The position numbers and the translations under genes are program-made. A stretch of 64,000 nt of DNA from Burkholderiales bacterium (lineage in GTDB: Bacteria; Pseudomonadota; Gammaproteobacteria; Burkholderiales; JAEUOS01). The stretch is taken from contig OZ257137.1 in assembly GCA_965279115.1 (NCBI GenBank), positions 732,224 through 796,223 of the forward strand. The letters are read 5' to 3'. The first letter of the stretch is position 1. Each line of letters starts with the position of its first letter. Positions 31,533 to 39,346 of the stretch are shown piece by piece. The notes under the pieces were generated by a model. That model was not told the origin of the DNA. It did no database searches and worked only from the letters and a program-made list of their open reading frames with translations.

Positions 31533-33740
31533 ATGCTCGATACCACCATTGAATCGCCGCAGACCAATGCGCCACGGGCCGCGGACCGGCGCGGCCGCGC
31601 TTCGATGCAATGGCTGCTTGCCGCACTGATCGCGGCAACCGCGCTGCCATTGATCGCGCTCCTGGGCTACCAGATGGTCCGCGAGACGCGGTCCGACATT
31701 GACGCGGCGCGCAGTCTCGTGCGCGGTTTGGCGGAGGTAACCGCCAACGATTCCGCCACGGCGATCAACAAGATCGAACGCACCGTACGCCTGCTCGCCC
31801 AGCGTCCGATGGTGCGCAGCCTGGACCCGGACAAATGCGATCCGGTGCTGGAAGAACTCCGCGGGTTCGAGCGCAATTTCAACAACGTCGTCACCTTCGA
31901 CGCCGCCGGCGACCGGATCTGCTCCGCGCTGCGCCCGGCCGGCAAGGCGCCGCCAAATGTCAGCACCTCGCGCTGGTTCCAGCGTCTGGTTTCCAGCAAC
32001 GACATCGTGATCAGTTCGCCGCAAATAGGCGCCTACTCGGGCCGCTGGATCGCGATCCTCGCGCATCCGGTCCGCGATCCGGGTGGAAACGTGGCCGGCG
32101 CCGTGGCGGTGGCGATCGACCTGGCCGCCTTCCAGCCGGTGGCCACCGCGGCACTGCCGCCCGGCGGCGTGATGGGAATCATCAACGGCGAGGGCATGAT
32201 CGTCACGCGGCTGAGCCAGGCCGAGGAATCCATCGGCCGGAATGTGGCCGACACCAACCTCGGCAGGGCGGTGCTCGGCGGCGCGGCGAACACCGAAGTG
32301 ATCACGGGGAACGACGGGATCGAGCGCCTGTACGCCTATCAGCCCATCGCGAAATCCGGCTGGTTCGTCACCGTTGGCGTGCCGACCGAACTGGTGCTGG
32401 CAAGGGCACGTCAGAGCGCATGGCGCAACGGCCTGGGTGCGCTGCTGGTGATCGCCCTGGCGGCGCTCCTGGTCGCGCGCACCTATCGCCGCATCGCTGT
32501 CCCATTGCTGGCCCTGCACGACACGGCGCGCGCCATATCCGAGGGTGACCGCACCCGTCGTGCGCCGGTCGGCGGGCCATCCGAGCTCGCTGAAGTCGCC
32601 ACCACCTTCAATCGCATGATGGAGCGCATCCCGCAGATCGAAGGCGCCCTCAGTGAGCGCGAGGAGCAGTACCGGCGATTGTTCCTGGCTTCACCGGACG
32701 CCATCGTGGTCACCTCGGCGGGGCGAATCGAGATGGCAAACCCCGCCGCCGTCGACCTGTTCGGTGCCGGTATGGAGGGCGACGTCATAGGCCGCATGCT
32801 GATTGATTCGATCCACCCCGATTTCCGGGCGCGGGCGAAGTCCCGACTCGGCAGTGCCGCGCCCGAATCACGCGACCTGCGTGTCACCGAACTCGACATC
32901 CTGCGCGCCAACGAAAACCGCGCCACTGTCGAATTGATGGCACTCCCTTTCTCGTACGACGGCAATCCTGCAGTGCTGTGCATTTTCAAGGACATCTCGG
33001 ACCAGCGGCGCCTGGAACGTGAGGTCCTCGCGCATCGGGCGGAAGCCGAGCGCCTGGTCAATCAACTCGTCGCGCAGCAGACGGCAGCGGCCATCGCGCA
33101 TGAACTCAACCAGCCGCTGGTCGCCGTGTCCGCCTACAGCGAAGCCGCATTGGCGATGGTGCGCAATGGCGATCCGCAGGCCGAAAAACTGGCGCAGGCG
33201 CTTGAAGGCGCGGCCAGCCAGGCGCAGCGCGCCGGAAGAACCCTGCATGAGCTGCTGGATTTCCTGCACAAGAGCGACGCCGGTTCCGAGCCTGTCGACC
33301 TCAACGAAGTCGTCAACGACGCTGTCGCCGCCACGCTTGCCGGCAGCCCGGTCCGTTTCCTGCCCGAGATCTCGCTCGCCGCGCTGCCGCCGGTCCTCGC
33401 AAACCGCAACCAGTTGCAACGGGTACTGTCAAACCTGCTGCAGAACGGCATCGACGCAATGCAAGCGAGTGGTACATCGCCCGATTTGTTCAAGCTGGAG
33501 GTCCGCACCGCGCGCGTCGGCGACATGGCGCAGGTGACTGTACGCGACCACGGACCCGGCCTGGACGATCACGCCCGAAACCGCTTGTTCGAGCCATTCT
33601 TCACCACCAAGCCGCACGGTATCGGCCTGGGGCTCACCATCAGCCGCGCCCTGATCGAAAGCCACGGGGGCCGCATGTGGCACGACAGCAACGAGGCGAC
33701 CGGCGGTGCCTTCCATTTCACCCTTCCGCTCACGACATGA
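31533..33740 (+). CDS. sensor histidine kinase: periplasmic dCache-like domain, TM, HAMP, PAS, HisKA, HATPase
   Basis: TM1 is WLLAALIAATALPLIALLGY and the periplasmic region is about 270 aa. TM2 is LGALLVIALAALLVA, followed by HAMP (IAVPLLALHDTARAISEGD...FNRMMERI) and PAS (YRRLFLASPDAIVVTSAGRIEMANPAAVDLFG). H-box AIAHELNQPL, N-box LLQNGIDAM, G-boxes DHGPGL and GIGLGL. ATG 31605 is an alternative start. Confidence 0.9.
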   Translation: MLDTTIESPQTNAPRAADRRGRASMQWLLAALIAATALPLIALLGYQMVRETRSDIDAARSLVRGLAEVTANDSATAINKIERTVRLLAQRPMVRSLDPDKCDPVLEELRGFERNFNNVVTFDAAGDRICSALRPAGKAPPNVSTSRWFQRLVSSNDIVISSPQIGAYSGRWIAILAHPVRDPGGNVAGAVAVAIDLAAFQPVATAALPPGGVMGIINGEGMIVTRLSQAEESIGRNVADTNLGRAVLGGAANTEVITGNDGIERLYAYQPIAKSGWFVTVGVPTELVLARARQSAWRNGLGALLVIALAALLVARTYRRIAVPLLALHDTARAISEGDRTRRAPVGGPSELAEVATTFNRMMERIPQIEGALSEREEQYRRLFLASPDAIVVTSAGRIEMANPAAVDLFGAGMEGDVIGRMLIDSIHPDFRARAKSRLGSAAPESRDLRVTELDILRANENRATVELMALPFSYDGNPAVLCIFKDISDQRRLEREVLAHRAEAERLVNQLVAQQTAAAIAHELNQPLVAVSAYSEAALAMVRNGDPQAEKLAQALEGAASQAQRAGRTLHELLDFLHKSDAGSEPVDLNEVVNDAVAATLAGSPVRFLPEISLAALPPVLANRNQLQRVLSNLLQNGIDAMQASGTSPDLFKLEVRTARVGDMAQVTVRDHGPGLDDHARNRLFEPFFTTKPHGIGLGLTISRALIESHGGRMWHDSNEATGGAFHFTLPLTT

Positions 33741-34351
33741 AAACCGCTGCGACCGTGTACGTGATCGATGACGATTCCGCCGTGCGCGATTCGCTGGTGA
33801 TGCTGCTTGAACAACATGGCTTGCGGGCGGTCGCTTACCCGGGCGCGGCGGCGTTTCTGCAATCGGTGCCGCCCACCGCGCCCGGCTGCGCCGTCATTGA
33901 CGTTCGCATGCCCGGCACGGACGGCCTTGAGTTGCAGGAGCAGATGACCCGGCGCGGCTTCCTTCTCCCCGTCGTGATCCTAACCGGCCATGGCGACATT
34001 CCCATGAGTGTCAAGGCGATTCGCCGTGGTGCAGTCAACTTTCTCACCAAACCGGTCTCGGCCGGCGCGCTGGTCCATGCGGTGCATGAGGCACTGGAAG
34101 AAGGCGAGCGCGCCTACCGTGCAGCCGGCGAAGTCCAGTCCGCCGGCGCGCGGCTGGCCAGCCTGACGACGCGGGAAAGCGAGGTGATGGGGCTGGCGCT
34201 GCAAGCCTTGCCCAACAAGGAGATCGCCCGCCAATTGGGCATCAGCCATCGTACCGTCGAAGTCCATCGGGCCCGCCTGATGCACAAGACCGGCGCGCAG
34301 ACCCTGCTGGAACTGGCGCGCCTGGTGGAAGCAACGCAGCAGCGGTCCTGA
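33737..34351 (+). CDS. response regulator, FixJ/NarL family (REC + LuxR-type HTH)
   Basis: The ATG overlaps the kinase stop (ATGA). REC domain: VYVIDDDSAVRDSL and AVIDVRMPGTDG. HTH: LTTRESEVMGLALQALPNKEIARQLGISHRTVEVHRARLMHK. Confidence 0.9.
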   Translation: MKTAATVYVIDDDSAVRDSLVMLLEQHGLRAVAYPGAAAFLQSVPPTAPGCAVIDVRMPGTDGLELQEQMTRRGFLLPVVILTGHGDIPMSVKAIRRGAVNFLTKPVSAGALVHAVHEALEEGERAYRAAGEVQSAGARLASLTTRESEVMGLALQALPNKEIARQLGISHRTVEVHRARLMHKTGAQTLLELARLVEATQQRS

Positions 34352-34409: not shown

Positions 34410-35255
34410 ATGAAGACCCCCAAGCGCCTGCAGTCCCTGCTCGAGGAAGGCCTGATCGACGATGTCGTTCGCCAGCTGATGAGCGGCAAGGAAGCCACGG
34501 TCTACGTGGTGCGCAGCGGCGACGATACGCTATGCGCCAAGGTGTACAAGGAAGCCACCCAGCGCAGCTTTCGCCAAGCGGTGGACTACACCGAGAACCG
34601 TCGGGTCAAGAACAGCCGCCAGGCGCGCGCCATGGCCAAGGGCACGCGCTTCGGGCGGCAGGCGCAGGAGGAGGCCTGGCAGAGTGCAGAGGTGGATGCC
34701 CTGTATCGCCTCGCCGCCGCCGGCGTGCGCGTGCCGGTGCCGCACAACTTTTTCGAGGGCGTCCTGCTGATGGAACTGGTGGTCGACGAGCATGGCGACG
34801 CCGCACCGCGGCTCAATGATGTGCTCTTCACCACCGAGGCCGCGATGGGGCACCACGCCACCCTGATACGCGACGTGGTGCGCATGCTGTGCGCGGGCGT
34901 CGTGCACGGCGACCTGTCGGAATTCAACATCCTGCTGGCCGCCGACGGTCCGGTCATCATCGACCTGCCTCAGGCGGTGGACGCCGCGGGCAACAACCAC
35001 GCCAGTCGCATGCTGTTGCGCGACGTGCAGAACCTGCGCGATTTCTTCGGTCGTTACGCGCCCGAATTGCTGACAACCGAGTATGGCCACGAGATCTGGG
35101 ATCTCTACGCACGCGGCCTGCTTACCCCCGAGACCAAGCTGGCGGGTCTCTACGAGGCGCCTTCCGGGCCTGTTGATGTGGGCAGCGTGCTCGATGTCAT
35201 CGAAGATGCCGCGGCCGAGGAAGCCGCGCGACTGCTGCGCATTTCGGCCGTCTAG
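34410..35255 (+). CDS. RIO1-like atypical serine protein kinase
   Basis: Contains GKEATVYVV...CAKVYK (ATP-binding Lys), VHGDLSEFNILL (RIO catalytic loop) and VIIDLPQAV (metal-binding Asp). Confidence 0.85.
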   Translation: MKTPKRLQSLLEEGLIDDVVRQLMSGKEATVYVVRSGDDTLCAKVYKEATQRSFRQAVDYTENRRVKNSRQARAMAKGTRFGRQAQEEAWQSAEVDALYRLAAAGVRVPVPHNFFEGVLLMELVVDEHGDAAPRLNDVLFTTEAAMGHHATLIRDVVRMLCAGVVHGDLSEFNILLAADGPVIIDLPQAVDAAGNNHASRMLLRDVQNLRDFFGRYAPELLTTEYGHEIWDLYARGLLTPETKLAGLYEAPSGPVDVGSVLDVIEDAAAEEAARLLRISAV

Positions 35256-35282
35256 GCGCGTCGCCGGCGCCCGCCCGGGCGC

Positions 35283-36518
35283 TCACGCAGAAAAGCGTCC
35301 ATCCGCACCCAGCGGCAGGTAGGGGTGCGCCCGCGTGCGGGCCGCATCGACCTCCAGTACCGCCCGCCCGAGGGCGGCCAGGAACGGCAAGCCGGTTTCC
35401 CGGTACTCGTAGCGGCCGTCGTTGAGGACATCATCTTCATTGACGTAAAGCGAGGCGGACAGAAAGAACTCCGCGCCGCGCGTGGTATCGCAGACATATG
35501 CGCAATCGGCCAGGTAACCGAACGAGCGCCCCACCTTGTTGAACGAACGCACGCCTGCAGGCAACGCCTGCGCGCCACCGCCGCCCACCAGGTACTTGGC
35601 ATGTGACGGGGGATAGGCGCGTTCATCGTAGAGCGGGTCGGCGCATTCCGCCGGCAACATGCCCATGCATTGCCGCAGATACTGGTGGGCCGCCGCATCA
35701 AGGCGAAAGCGCCGCGCCGGCGCGACCGCCTCGGGCATGACGATGGCCATGAGCATGGCGTGCGCCTCGTCGAGCGGCATGAAATTGCTGTCCGAGAAAT
35801 CGTGCGGACCCGGTATGGTCTTGCGGCCATCCACCCAGGCGCGCCCCTTGTGCGCCCGACCGTGCGGGAAGGCGCGCACCTCGACCGTGGTCGCGGCATC
35901 GACGCGCGCGAGGACCTCGCGCCTGGCATCGACAAACTCGCTCATGCCGCTAGCCCGGTTTTCGGCAGGGGAACATGGCGCGATGCGCGCGATGATGCGG
36001 CTCATCGGACAGCCCATGTCCGAGAGCCGCGCATGGATGCGGTCCTGGCCGAGCAGGTCATACAGGCGGTTGAAGGGTTCGTTTTCGCTGGCCACGAACA
36101 TGCGGCGAATGGAGCGCGCCACCGATTCAGGCTGGAGAGTGGTGCGCGGCCAACAACGTGGCTGGCCGCGTTGCACGATAAGCGAGTCGCGTCCGACGCC
36201 GCGCTGCGCGAATTCGGCCACCCGCTCCAGCGCCAGCGCGGCGACCGGCAGTTTGACCAGGCTGGCCGGGGCGAACCAGCGCTCGGGAACGACGCCGTGG
36301 CGGATATGCGTCAATTGCGGAGCAGCGCCGGGACGTCGGTCGATGCGGGTGTAGATCACCTGTAGTTCAAAGCGCGGGTCACGCCAGATGTCGGCCATGC
36401 CCGCGCCGGTCGCGCCGCGGATCGCATCCAGCGCATTGACGGCGCCGGTGACGGCCGGCCAAACCGCCGGCGCTGCCGCCATGCCGGCCACTGCGCGGAG
36501 AAACCGGCGCCGGTTCAC
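35283..36518 (-). CDS. exported serine hydrolase with beta-lactamase/transpeptidase-like fold (Tat signal)
   Basis: The GTG start overlaps the upstream stop (GTGA). Twin-arginine leader MNRRRFLRAVAGMAAAPAVWPAVTGA. Contains S-x-x-K (FAPASLVKLP), S-x-N-like VASENEPFN and K-x-G-like FNKVGRSFG. The subclass cannot be determined by eye. Confidence 0.75.
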   Translation of the reverse strand: MNRRRFLRAVAGMAAAPAVWPAVTGAVNALDAIRGATGAGMADIWRDPRFELQVIYTRIDRRPGAAPQLTHIRHGVVPERWFAPASLVKLPVAALALERVAEFAQRGVGRDSLIVQRGQPRCWPRTTLQPESVARSIRRMFVASENEPFNRLYDLLGQDRIHARLSDMGCPMSRIIARIAPCSPAENRASGMSEFVDARREVLARVDAATTVEVRAFPHGRAHKGRAWVDGRKTIPGPHDFSDSNFMPLDEAHAMLMAIVMPEAVAPARRFRLDAAAHQYLRQCMGMLPAECADPLYDERAYPPSHAKYLVGGGGAQALPAGVRSFNKVGRSFGYLADCAYVCDTTRGAEFFLSASLYVNEDDVLNDGRYEYRETGLPFLAALGRAVLEVDAARTRAHPYLPLGADGRFSA

Positions 36519-37675
36519 CGCATCGACACCTGCCGCGCGGTATTGGTTGCGGCGCGCTTCTCGAACACCTGCAGGTTGCTGCTGCCGGGACGGTGGCTGT
36601 AGCCAATACCGGAATCAAGCGGATGCGCGTTGCGCGCGTAGGCCTCGCGCAACGCGTCCTGGCGGCGCTCCTTGAACAGCGCGATCGGCCGGGAATACGA
36701 ACCGTACAGGCGGCCATTCCATTGCGTCGATGCATAGGCGGTGAAGGGGATCCCCGAGTCGTCCTGCAGCACCATGCTGGCCCGCTCCAGCACCAGGCTG
36801 CGCGCGACGCTGAACTCGGCGCGATGCAAAAGGTAGGAGGCGGCTTTCAGGAACACCGGTCCGGCGCCCAGGGAGCGCACATGGCGCTCCACTTGTGGCG
36901 TTCTGGCCAGCGCGCGATCGCTCAGGTCGGCCTGCAGGTAGACCAGTTCGCGCGTGGCCGGCTTGCCCGGCTCGGCCAGTTGCAGGCGTACCCCGCCAAT
37001 GCCGCCGTGCTGCGCCATGCCCATGCACAGCGCGCCGTCTTCGTTCAGGTGGACGGCGTCGACCGCGCGCACGTCAAAGCCGCCGCGCGCCGCCATGGCC
37101 ATCATGATCGGTGCCACGCCGGCCAGCTTGCCGCGCTTCAGGTCTTCTTTCATGGCGTTGGTACGGAAAAAGCTCAGGCGCAAGAGGGTCGACATCGACT
37201 GGCGCAGCTGCGCCAGGCTCGCTGCCGCCTGTGCTTCATTCATCTGCGGCCATGCCGGTGCCGTGCCCGGGTCTTCCAGGCCGATCAGGAGGTAACGCGG
37301 CGCGCGCGGAAAAAGGGTGTGCGCGTACATGAAATCGGGGCCGCTGAATGGGTAATACAGCGGGCCGCGCGATCCTTCGAGCGCGTCGACCTCGCGTTCC
37401 GAAAATCCGCGCCACAAGGCAAGCGCCCGCTCGCGGGTGCGCGCCCAGTTCACATCCATGGCCGCGGCATGTGTTCGCCAGAAGCCTGTCGCGCTGATCT
37501 CGCTGCCGTGTACCCCGGTCGGCCGCATGCCGGCCAGCAGGCGGCCGTTGGCCTGCATGACTTCCGCCGCTTCCGCCGCCGGCGTCGAAGGTGCAACGCA
37601 CGCTGCCGGCGCGGCGCTGGCGGCAAGCATGGAGACGCCCAGGGCAAGGGCTGCAAAAGCACGCGGGATGGTCAT
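36515..37675 (-). CDS. exported hypothetical protein, unknown family (386 aa)
   Basis: ATG 37675 gives a Sec-type signal peptide MTIPRAFAALALGVSMLAASAAPAA. The codon usage is G+C-rich. Conserved-looking segments include GPLYYPFSGPDFMYAHTLFP and VFLKAASYLLH, but I recognise no family. The track ORF adds 27 upstream codons. Confidence 0.65.
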   Translation of the reverse strand: MTIPRAFAALALGVSMLAASAAPAACVAPSTPAAEAAEVMQANGRLLAGMRPTGVHGSEISATGFWRTHAAAMDVNWARTRERALALWRGFSEREVDALEGSRGPLYYPFSGPDFMYAHTLFPRAPRYLLIGLEDPGTAPAWPQMNEAQAAASLAQLRQSMSTLLRLSFFRTNAMKEDLKRGKLAGVAPIMMAMAARGGFDVRAVDAVHLNEDGALCMGMAQHGGIGGVRLQLAEPGKPATRELVYLQADLSDRALARTPQVERHVRSLGAGPVFLKAASYLLHRAEFSVARSLVLERASMVLQDDSGIPFTAYASTQWNGRLYGSYSRPIALFKERRQDALREAYARNAHPLDSGIGYSHRPGSSNLQVFEKRAATNTARQVSMR

Positions 37676-37813
37676 GGTCGCAAAGTCCAAAGTTGGGCGC
37701 CGCCAGCGGGCGCAGGCTCCAGGCCTTTCAAGCATCCCACAACAACGCCTAGGCAATCGCCCAAAAAGGCGTACGAAACACCTGCCTGCGGCGAAACGAT
37801 CGCGACAGGCGGC

Positions 37814-39346
37814 TCACGCCGATTCGCCCCGCGTGCGCCGCATGCCCGCATCCAGCGGGTAGATCGGCCGCCGGACCCGCTCGAAACTGAAGATGGCGTT
37901 GTCCGAACTCGTGACACCCGGCCCCGCGCACGGCACCACGGCGGCAGCCAAGGGCTCGAACACCGGGCGGAAATACATGCGCGACTTGAGCAGCAGAAAG
38001 CGAGCAGCGCGGGGATCGATGCCGACCGACTCGAAACAGCCGATATCGAGTGGCTCCTGCGGCTGCGAGGTCACCACGATCTGCGCGCGGCCGGTATCGA
38101 GCACGGCAGTGCGGCCCATGAAAAGCCGGTCGCCGGTGAAGATGGGGCCGGTGACGACATACTCGCCATCGCTGATCACCCGCACCCGGCCGGTCAGTTC
38201 GAGCGGCACAGGATTGGGCACGCCGATGCGCGGCATTGGCGTCTTGTTGCCCAGTTTCACCGTCACCTCGGCACCGATGCCGGCGGCCGCCATCTGCGCC
38301 ACGACCTGCGGGTCGCAGGTGGGGCCGACGACGATGCCCTCGAAACCGGCCTCGAGCGCAGCGCGCAGCACATCGATGGTGTCGCAGGTACCGCCGGACA
38401 TGACGTTGTCGCCGTGGTCCATGAGGATCACCGGCTTGCCATTGGCCTTTTCCGCCGCCTTGCGCGCACGCGCGATGGACTGCGCCAGCGACTCCTGGCG
38501 GAAGATGAATCCGGCGCGGCGCGACCAGAGGAAATCGGCGCCCCACTCGGCGGTGCGCTGCGCCAGCGCCGCAGCACCACGTCGCCTGGCGTCGGCCACC
38601 ACCACCACGCTCATGCCGGCGTCCGGCGTGTCGGCCTGCGGGAAGCCGCCGAACACGCTGCAGGCAAGGATGCCGGGATCGCGCTCGCGCCACCTGGCGC
38701 CTTCCAGCGCCGCCTTCATGGCGCCCAGGTTGGTATTCATGCCGAGCGTCTGGGCCAGCACGCGCGCGTGGGCATAGCCGATCACGGGCTTGATCCGGCC
38801 GTCGAGCATATCGAACAGCAGCCGGCCGGCGTGCTCGCCGGTTTCGTACATGTCGATGTGCGGATAGGTCTTGAAGCCGACGATGATGTCGGCGTTGTCG
38901 ACGATCTTGCGGCTGATGTTGCCGTGCAGGTCCAGCGCAACGGCCAGTGGCGTGGCGGGGGCTATGGCGCGGATGCGTTCGAGCAGGTCGCCCTCGCCGT
39001 CCGGGCTGTTCTCGGCCACCATGGCGCCGTGCAGGTCCAGCAGGATCGCGTCGCAGCCGCGCGCCACGGCCGCGCAGATGGTGTCGCACATGTGGGTGTA
39101 GGCGGCAGCCTCGACGGGAGCGCTCGGGTAGGCCATGCCGGCCAGCGGGGTTTCGATCTCGCAGCCGCGCGCTTCGGCCAGCGCGAGGAAGGCGCCCATG
39201 GCGACACGCGCGCCGGTCATGGCGCGGCGGGCGTCGGCGCCATAGTAGGGCCCCTTGCCATTGCCGGTGCCGAAGGCGGCCAGCGGCGTGGGCACCGGTG
39301 AGAAGGTGTTGGTTTCGTGCTGCATGCGGGCGATGACAACGCGCAT
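37814..39346 (-). CDS. M81-family metallopeptidase (MlrC-like)
   Basis: The N-terminus MRVVIARMQHETNTFSPVPT is the MlrC N-terminal-domain hallmark. Also contains AILLDLHGAMV and ILMDHGDNVMSGG. No signal peptide. An AGGAGG RBS precedes the start. Confidence 0.85.
   Translation of the reverse strand: MRVVIARMQHETNTFSPVPTPLAAFGTGNGKGPYYGADARRAMTGARVAMGAFLALAEARGCEIETPLAGMAYPSAPVEAAAYTHMCDTICAAVARGCDAILLDLHGAMVAENSPDGEGDLLERIRAIAPATPLAVALDLHGNISRKIVDNADIIVGFKTYPHIDMYETGEHAGRLLFDMLDGRIKPVIGYAHARVLAQTLGMNTNLGAMKAALEGARWRERDPGILACSVFGGFPQADTPDAGMSVVVVADARRRGAAALAQRTAEWGADFLWSRRAGFIFRQESLAQSIARARKAAEKANGKPVILMDHGDNVMSGGTCDTIDVLRAALEAGFEGIVVGPTCDPQVVAQMAAAGIGAEVTVKLGNKTPMPRIGVPNPVPLELTGRVRVISDGEYVVTGPIFTGDRLFMGRTAVLDTGRAQIVVTSQPQEPLDIGCFESVGIDPRAARFLLLKSRMYFRPVFEPLAAAVVPCAGPGVTSSDNAIFSFERVRRPIYPLDAGMRRTRGESA

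Follow-up and report, generated by a model that had tools for sequence, protein, structure and literature searches.

A widespread family of exported bacterial proteins encoded with L-type amino-acid permeases and beta-lactamase-fold serine hydrolases

In the 64,000-nucleotide stretch of Burkholderiales bacterium DNA analyzed here (contig OZ257137.1, positions 732,224 to 796,223; "the window" below), the stop codon of a gene for a 386-amino acid protein with a predicted export signal overlaps the start codon of a serine hydrolase gene. This arrangement raises the question of what the exported protein does, and whether it is a functional or physical partner of the hydrolase, as was proposed in an earlier reading of the sequence alone (the sequence-only reading). 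Library searches, structural models and analyses of gene neighborhoods placed the protein in a large family (hereafter, the family) that is without a curated model and, judging by the literature that could be searched, undescribed; literature searches on its signature motifs returned nothing. The commoner partner of the family is not the hydrolase but an amino-acid permease of the L-type amino-acid transporter (LAT) type, to which it is also fused in two lineages. Both the permease-family-hydrolase module and the permease-family fusion likewise appear to be undescribed. We propose, with a probability of about 0.4, that the family protein, as part of a system of three modules, binds or chemically converts an amino-acid-type ligand on the outer surface of the inner membrane.

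The family gene and the overlapping hydrolase gene

The two genes and the elements that define them are located as follows.

36515..37675, minus strand: family gene, coding for a 386-amino acid exported protein (open reading frame, homologue clusters and AlphaFold model; no curated family match).
37601..37675, minus strand: predicted Sec-type signal peptide, residues 1 to ~25, MTIPRAFAALALGVSMLAASAAPAA (hydrophobic N-terminus with low pLDDT).
36515..36518, minus strand: GTGA junction between the stop codon of the family gene and the start codon of the hydrolase gene, in the sequence ...atgcGGTGAaccgg.
35283..36518, minus strand: 411-amino acid predicted exported serine hydrolase of class A beta-lactamase fold, a facultative partner (PF13354, motifs, model and Foldseek).

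Translation of the minus strand from ATG 37675 gives 386 amino acids beginning MTIPRAFAALALGVSMLAASAAPAAC, and all peptide segments quoted in the sequence-only reading are present in it. The longest open reading frame (ORF) would start at TTG 37756, but ATG 37675 is the better start because homologues at 80–93% identity begin at that position. A word-indexed search returned 587 matches, all of them unnamed or "hypothetical protein", and the family is present in at least 587 species genomes; an exhaustive profile search returned ~3,380 clusters at 50% identity, and 23 columns of the family alignment are invariant, in the motifs YPFSGPDF, GLE, SFFRT, LKAASYL, QDDSGIP and GIGY. Because of these homologues and invariant columns, we regard the family gene, on sequence grounds, as a real gene and not as a shadow ORF of GC-rich DNA. 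Its members were found in Burkholderiales and other Proteobacteria, Cyanobacteria, Bacteroidota, Verrucomicrobiota, Spirochaetota, Acidobacteriota and other groups. An Arg/Ala/Gly-rich ORF of 902 amino acids on the plus strand (36593-39301), antisense to the family gene and to the gene upstream of it, is a high-GC shadow frame and no gene.

The absence of a recognizable family, stated in the sequence-only reading, held in all the libraries searched. The 386-amino acid protein had no match in Pfam or NCBIfam at E up to 1 and none in PADLOC; sequence searches of PDB with the single sequence and with a profile gave only noise (best E=0.065); and when 50 diverse homologues were scanned, no Pfam family was matched by more than two of them.

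Export of the protein is predicted from its N-terminus, where the maximum 10-residue Kyte-Doolittle score of the signal segment is 2.17. A hydrophobic N-terminal segment occurs in 199 of 206 full-length family members, 41 of which also carry a lipobox-like Cys. The family protein is therefore predicted to be periplasmic and, in many relatives, a lipoprotein or membrane-anchored.

The overlap with the downstream gene was also as described before: the TGA of the family gene (36515-36517) shares bases with the GTG (36516-36518) of the 411-amino acid ORF. An identical 4-base overlap recurs in two relatives, L001 (63% identical, best segment) and L083 (60% identical), and the junctions in L023, L032 and L037 are overlapping or abutting. 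The GTG start is credible because the hydrolases of L001 and L083 begin identically, with MNRRRF. Judged from this junction, the family-hydrolase pair in the window is translationally coupled. A promoter and terminator scan gave nothing exceeding shuffled expectation.

The identification of the downstream gene as a serine hydrolase, which is also its database name, was borne out by motifs and model, which assign it to the class A beta-lactamase fold. The protein matches PF13354 (E=1.5e-7). Both hydrolase alignments keep S86-x-x-K89 and S144 without exception; N146 of the SxN motif is invariant in one (A2) and nearly so in the other (A3). The hydrolase model (pLDDT 91.3) retrieved class A beta-lactamases in Foldseek with probability 1.0 and target-normalized TM-scores of 0.6–0.72, at 12–19% identity. 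It has the fold and the SxxK/SxN motifs in common with class A beta-lactamases; it differs from them in being ~140 residues larger than the canonical enzymes and in the K-T/S-G box, the Lys of which is not conserved in the hydrolase family, where N-x-V-G330-x-S-x-G334 is found instead. None of the NCBIfam beta-lactamase models was matched by the hydrolase of the window. Its N-terminus, MNRRRFLRAVAG (MNRRRFLR), which is common to L001 and L083, fits the twin-arginine consensus by eye; the Pfam TAT_signal match (E=0.022, 15.1 bits) falls under the 22.7-bit cut-off. Such a twin-arginine leader was found only in the clade of the window, and distant hydrolase homologues have Sec or lipoprotein signals. 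Two Cys residues, C122 and C182, are invariant in the 18-sequence alignment A2 and possibly form a disulfide in the hydrolase family.

Genetic coupling to amino-acid permeases and to hydrolases

The neighborhoods of 80 family loci from species-representative genomes were compared after clustering all neighboring ORFs by homology. An APC amino-acid permease gene lies immediately upstream of the family gene, on the same strand, in 47 of the 80 loci, which belong to many phyla, and within 5 kb in 51. The median gap between both genes is ~260 bp, and stop and start codons sometimes overlap (e.g., in L032). The permease matches AA_permease_2 in Pfam, and its best NCBIfam model is that of the LAT subfamily. 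Among proteins of solved structure it is closest to the bacterial LAT BasC (E=3.7e-47), with the light chains of human heteromeric amino-acid transporters (HATs) b0,+AT, LAT2, y+LAT1/2, xCT, Asc-1 and LAT1 coming next; the scores of CAT-type and AdiC-type transporters are far below these. No LAT permease was found within the 64-kb window, where only the family-hydrolase pair is present. In several loci two or three tandem family paralogues follow a single LAT-type permease (L020, L033, L045, L066 and L071, from Verrucomicrobiota, and also L037), which suggests diversified ligand specificity.

Two independent fusions of permease and family protein were found, P0142 (809 amino acids) and P0262 (762 amino acids), both in the order LAT-type permease, extra hydrophobic segment, family domain. 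P0142 corresponds to RefSeq WP_246659694.1 from Methylosinus; three assemblies encode it identically, and the frame runs through the junction without interruption. Over 426 residues, its permease half shares 46% identity with a cyanobacterial permease encoded next to a separate family gene, so that a single permease subgroup serves both the fused and the unfused systems. Since the 12-transmembrane core has a cytoplasmic C-terminus, the extra segment that follows it would place the fused family domain on the outer side, in agreement with the signal peptide that the stand-alone proteins have. Further family members contain periplasmic domains linked to the cell wall or envelope: a C-terminal SPOR domain in P0248 and P0183, and an ExbD/TolR periplasmic domain in P0222. 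Among 20 long family members scanned, no hydrolase fusion was found. The Methylosinus fusion gene (L086 5001-7430, GCA_018887255.1) is inconsistently annotated: RefSeq calls the 809-amino acid protein "APC family permease", and GenBank calls only the C-terminal 369 amino acids, as "hypothetical protein" (MBU3887089.1, TRL37415.1), with no stop codon at the junction.

A link of this kind with a permease could mean that bacterial LATs have, in the family protein, an ancillary ectodomain subunit without catalytic activity, a functional analogue of CD98hc and rBAT, the SLC3 heavy chains of eukaryotic HATs. Docked at the periplasmic face of the permease, the family protein would stabilize, localize or regulate it, the hydrolase link being secondary. 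Partner permease and HAT light chains are members of one subfamily, LAT, and the tight same-strand adjacency in 47 of the 80 loci, the covalent fusion via an extra transmembrane segment in two lineages, and the SPOR and TolR-like fusions, which suggest tethering, would all fit such a subunit. BasC and SteT are used as stand-alone bacterial models for human SLC7 transporters. According to the literature, all known heavy subunits are metazoan and bacterial LATs function on their own (PMC6472337), so that no known bacterial partner competes for the role. If true, the HAT heavy subunit would have its first bacterial counterpart in the family, which would be new, because metazoans are the reported origin of heavy chains and bacterial LATs have been treated as stand-alone (PMC6472337). 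The family, however, keeps every invariant residue in lineages without an adjacent permease, including that of the window; its invariant polar residues cluster, in the model described below, in a ligand crevice and not on a broad surface; and two or three tandem paralogues per permease are more easily reconciled with enzymes or binders than with a 1:1 subunit. The comparison with SLC3 heavy chains is also limited. Like these, family members are predicted extracytoplasmic enzyme-fold proteins that go with a LAT-subfamily (SLC7-type) permease, but the association of the family is genetic only. The heavy chains are glycosidase-like (GH13), whereas the predicted fold of the family is methyltransferase-like and no glycosidase match was found by sequence or fold. 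They are joined to the light chain by a disulfide, whereas no disulfide-forming Cys is conserved in the family alignment and family members also occur without an adjacent permease. Altogether, we consider an ancillary subunit unlikely, although it is the main rival of the reading that we propose.

The hydrolase is a less frequent neighbor. A PF13354 hydrolase gene directly follows the family gene in the same orientation in 14 of the 80 loci, and the stop codon of the one frequently overlaps the start codon of the other; these are from Burkholderiales, Hymenobacter, Flavobacterium, other Bacteroidota, Rhodanobacteraceae and one deltaproteobacterium. Three further loci contain a PF13354 hydrolase in other arrangements. 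In addition, two separate clusters of PF00144 proteins (class C/DD-peptidase type) are encoded convergently downstream of the family gene, in nine cyanobacterial and eight verrucomicrobial loci, respectively. In the reciprocal test, the hydrolase family was searched in metagenome contigs, which gave 52 loci where the upstream sequence was 1.2 kb or longer. A family member was found directly upstream, on the same strand, in 22 of them (42%), preceded by the permease in 21 of these 22, and the family and the permease were the only broadly conserved neighbors of the hydrolase. This result indicated that permease, family and hydrolase constitute a genuine conserved module, and that the pairing in the window is not due to chance. 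The family is thus genetically coupled, in decreasing frequency, to the LAT-type exchanger, to beta-lactamase-fold hydrolases of three kinds, and to cell-wall-binding domains.

The pairing is nevertheless facultative in both directions, as close relatives of the window illustrate. A 74%-identical family protein, P0005 (L081 and L082), keeps the gene order of the window on its upstream side (aminotransferase, EamA exporter, M81 metallopeptidase, family gene) and is without the hydrolase gene. Compared with window positions 34410-37675, the family gene of these loci (L081 8001-9570, L082 1607-3203) runs directly into a convergent RIO kinase gene. In the window, a gene for a bacterial RIO-type kinase (34410-35255, plus strand; PF01163, E=1e-41) converges on the hydrolase gene from its other side. 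Close relatives therefore differ cleanly in whether they have the hydrolase gene. The 60%-identical relative L083, conversely, keeps the overlapped family-hydrolase pair and is without the M81 gene. The pairing recurs in several phyla, and it is optional.

These counts bear directly on the partnership that the sequence-only reading had deduced from the overlap. A functional link with the hydrolase is supported by the 14 of 80 and 22 of 52 loci, and by the PF00144 groups too; exclusivity is not. The stricter form of the idea, in which the family protein would be a dedicated partner of the hydrolase (inhibitor, immunity protein, chaperone or substrate presenter) and would have no role without it, agrees with the conservation of the 4-base overlap in relatives and with the family gene being directly upstream in 22 of 52 hydrolase loci. 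Against it are the 66 of 80 family loci that have no such hydrolase immediately downstream on the same strand, the 74%-identical relative, in which family gene and synteny are kept without the hydrolase gene, and the 30 of 52 hydrolase loci without the family. The fusions, moreover, are to permeases and cell-wall-binding domains, and none among the 20 long members is to the hydrolase. Because the pairing is facultative and the permease is the commoner partner, and a fused one, a dedicated inhibitor, immunity or maturation role does not suit the distribution of the family; we found no support for it and consider it very improbable.

The order of genes in one of the family loci, L027 (JBPBQJ010000106.1, a metagenome-assembled genome labeled Janthinobacterium lividum), is like that of the Hymenobacter locus L036: TsaB-like, DUF2480, permease, family, hydrolase and the start of a 16S rRNA gene. 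L027 is probably a misbinned Hymenobacter contig.

Predicted fold and invariant residues

An AlphaFold2 model of the family protein was built on a 50-sequence alignment and was confident (pLDDT 88.8, pTM 0.88). Its Foldseek matches in PDB were weak (best E=2.8e-3, TM-scores 0.23–0.46) and consisted nearly entirely of class I S-adenosylmethionine (SAM)-dependent methyltransferases: PPM1/LCMT-1, TPMT, DOT1L and NNMT. The lowest E-values corresponded to the carboxyl methyltransferases PPM1/LCMT and the highest probability (0.97) to TPMT. The viral structure library BFVD agreed, with a DOT1-domain protein at probability 0.96 and many other methyltransferases. These matches, weak as they are, suggest that the core of the family protein has a Rossmann-like fold of the class I methyltransferase type. 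The top structural match overall was a BFVD entry, A0A5K0U891, an uncharacterized 393-amino acid protein of Yasminevirus sp. GU-2018 (E=1.8e-5, probability 1.0, TM-score 0.38); this protein, of similar size, could be a distant relative of the family.

The conserved motifs were located on the model, with the following results.

37334..37354, minus strand: Y108-P-F-S-G-P-D114 motif, in the loop right after the first core strand (-1 to +5 from the C-terminal end of strand 106-109); Y108, F110, G112 and D114 are invariant, S111 and P113 nearly so.
37274..37276, minus strand: invariant Glu134 (GLE), two residues past the second core strand (127-132).
36836..36847, minus strand: K277-A-A-S280 (LKAASYL motif), right after strand 272-276; K277 and A279 are invariant, S280 and Y281 nearly so.
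36752..36763, minus strand: D305-D306-S307-G308 (QDDSGIP motif), invariant, right after strand 299-304.

According to the secondary structure of the model, 12 of the 23 invariant residues lie at -1 to +6 residues from the C-terminal ends of four core strands: Y108 (within the strand), F110, G112 and D114; E134; K277, A279 and L282; and D305 to G308. The conserved residues Y108, G112 and D114, E134, K277, and D305-D306-S307 would therefore line a crevice at the C-terminal ends of the parallel strands, which is the standard ligand or cofactor site of Rossmann-like folds. Glu134 is placed like the ribose-binding acid of methyltransferase folds, an equivalence by position only. The D-S-G of QDDSGIP was considered as an aspartic-protease signature and dismissed, since the predicted fold of the family is alpha/beta and not a beta-barrel.

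On the basis of this fold, the family protein could be a divergent SAM-dependent carboxyl methyltransferase that acts in the periplasm on cell-wall or envelope carboxylates. In the corresponding methylation cycle, the LAT-type exchanger would swap cytoplasmic SAM for periplasmic S-adenosylhomocysteine, and the serine hydrolase would be the methylesterase that reverses the mark. Class I methyltransferases are the only fold matches obtained, with PPM1/LCMT at the lowest E and TPMT at 0.97. The family would share with them a Rossmann-like core of alternating strands and helices; in its model, a Gly-containing conserved loop follows the first strand and an invariant acid lies at the end of the second, placed as in SAM binders. 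The APC superfamily includes transporters of SAM or S-methylmethionine (yeast Sam3/Mmp1 and Escherichia coli MmuP), and the MmuP model matches the partner permease, although weakly. Family VIII esterases have a beta-lactamase fold, and the SPOR fusions point to peptidoglycan. An exchange of this type would also agree with LATs being obligatory exchangers (PMC6472337).

Sequence comparisons spoke against this possibility. No Pfam matches were obtained, and homology to TPMT was rejected, hhalign giving a probability of 0.4% with human TPMT (identical to PDB 2bzg) and 0.15% with a 12-sequence TPMT profile, which was shallow and mostly mammalian. The canonical methyltransferase motif I (E/D-x-G-x-G-x-G) is not present after strand 1 in the family; strand 106-109 is followed there by the loop F-S-G-P-D, which contains one Gly and resembles the atypical P-L-C-G-K loop of TPMT by eye only. 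The wider by-eye likeness (PLCGK...GVEIS in TPMT, PFSGP...GLEP in the family) was without statistical support. The family differs further from class I methyltransferases in its large helical N-terminal extension, in an inserted beta-hairpin region (201-248) and in its predicted export, to a compartment not known for SAM, which argues against access to the cofactor. Low TM-scores, the lack of a precedent for periplasmic SAM chemistry in the literature searched, and the lineage of the window, which is without the proposed SAM supplier, also weigh against it. If true, such a cycle would bring to the Gram-negative periplasm a SAM-dependent chemistry not described there before; we regard it as highly unlikely. 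Both hhalign runs avoided the expected YPFSGPD/GLE segment and put the helix-strand segment MAMAARGGFDVRAVDAVHL, residues 192-215 of the family protein (~37031-37102), on the alphaA-beta2 segment of TPMT, MKWFADRGHSVVGVEIS. The placement is not significant, and hints at a second Rossmann-like beta-alpha-beta unit.

A possible three-part system and its surroundings

The reading that we favor is that the family protein handles an amino-acid-type ligand together with the exchanger and the hydrolase. In this system, the beta-lactamase-fold serine hydrolase would cleave an amide or ester of an amino-acid-containing substrate, the family protein would then act on the product or capture it, and the LAT-type exchanger would move it across the membrane. 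The SPOR and TolR-like fusions are a pointer to a substrate that may derive from the cell wall or from peptides. The type of ligand, the order of these steps and any catalysis are what we infer, while the export signal, the size of the family, its fold class, the invariant positions, the adjacency and the fusions come from the comparisons themselves. A parallel is found in the solute-binding proteins of secondary transporters (DctP-type in TRAP and TctC-type in TTT systems), which, like the family, are exported or lipid-anchored, are encoded beside a secondary transporter or occasionally fused to it, and show expansion of paralogues beside a single transporter. The family is without their bilobal Venus-flytrap fold and without a consistent Pfam match to solute-binding proteins (one of 50 members, SBP_bac_5, E=0.011). 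To our knowledge, no APC transporter that depends on a solute-binding protein has been described.

Several points weigh against this three-part system. The fold matches are weak (TM-score at most 0.46) and indicate no chemistry. About one third of the family loci, including that of the window, have no adjacent permease, and more than half have no adjacent beta-lactamase-fold gene. The PF00144 neighbors are transcribed convergently and may partly reflect clade synteny. No riboswitch or leader that would reveal the ligand, and no regulator pointing to it, was found in 11 operon loci or in positions 30–44 kb of the window. The invariance of the residues would also be compatible with a purely structural docking surface.

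A widespread bacterial LAT subgroup is encoded with, and in two lineages fused to, a conserved, predicted extracytoplasmic domain of enzyme fold, which points to a mode of bacterial amino-acid exchange that has not been recognized so far. Extracytoplasmic processing or capture of a substrate may be coupled to the exchanger, and possibly tied to cell-wall turnover through the hydrolases and SPOR targeting. The association provides a testable context for a family of ~3,380 clusters without a Pfam or NCBIfam model, and for a subfamily of the "class A beta-lactamase-related serine hydrolases". A family model would be worth building for it, and its genes are at present called inconsistently, as the Methylosinus fusion shows.

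Upstream of the family gene, the window contains a further gene on the same strand.

37814..39346, minus strand: M81/MlrC-like metallopeptidase gene, context only (Pfam DUF1485 and MlrC_C), 138 bp upstream of the family gene.

This peptidase was rejected as a conserved partner: it is next to the family gene in none of the 80 wider loci and is also absent from L083. Since it was not found in those 80 loci, its linkage is local synteny of one Burkholderiales subclade. A peptide-degradation operon made up of the family gene, the M81/MlrC-like metallopeptidase, the EamA exporter and a class III aminotransferase would explain why all these genes lie on the same strand, with only 138 bp from the M81 gene to the family gene, and why their order is kept in the 74%-identical relative. 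The same absences, however, argue against it, and the M81 protein has no signal peptide by inspection, which would place it in a different compartment from that of the family protein. We find such an operon hardly credible.

Downstream of the hydrolase gene and beyond the RIO-type kinase gene, the window contains genes for a putative PAS/HAMP-type sensor histidine kinase (31533-33740, plus strand) and a putative response regulator that appears LuxR-type by inspection (33677-34351, plus strand).

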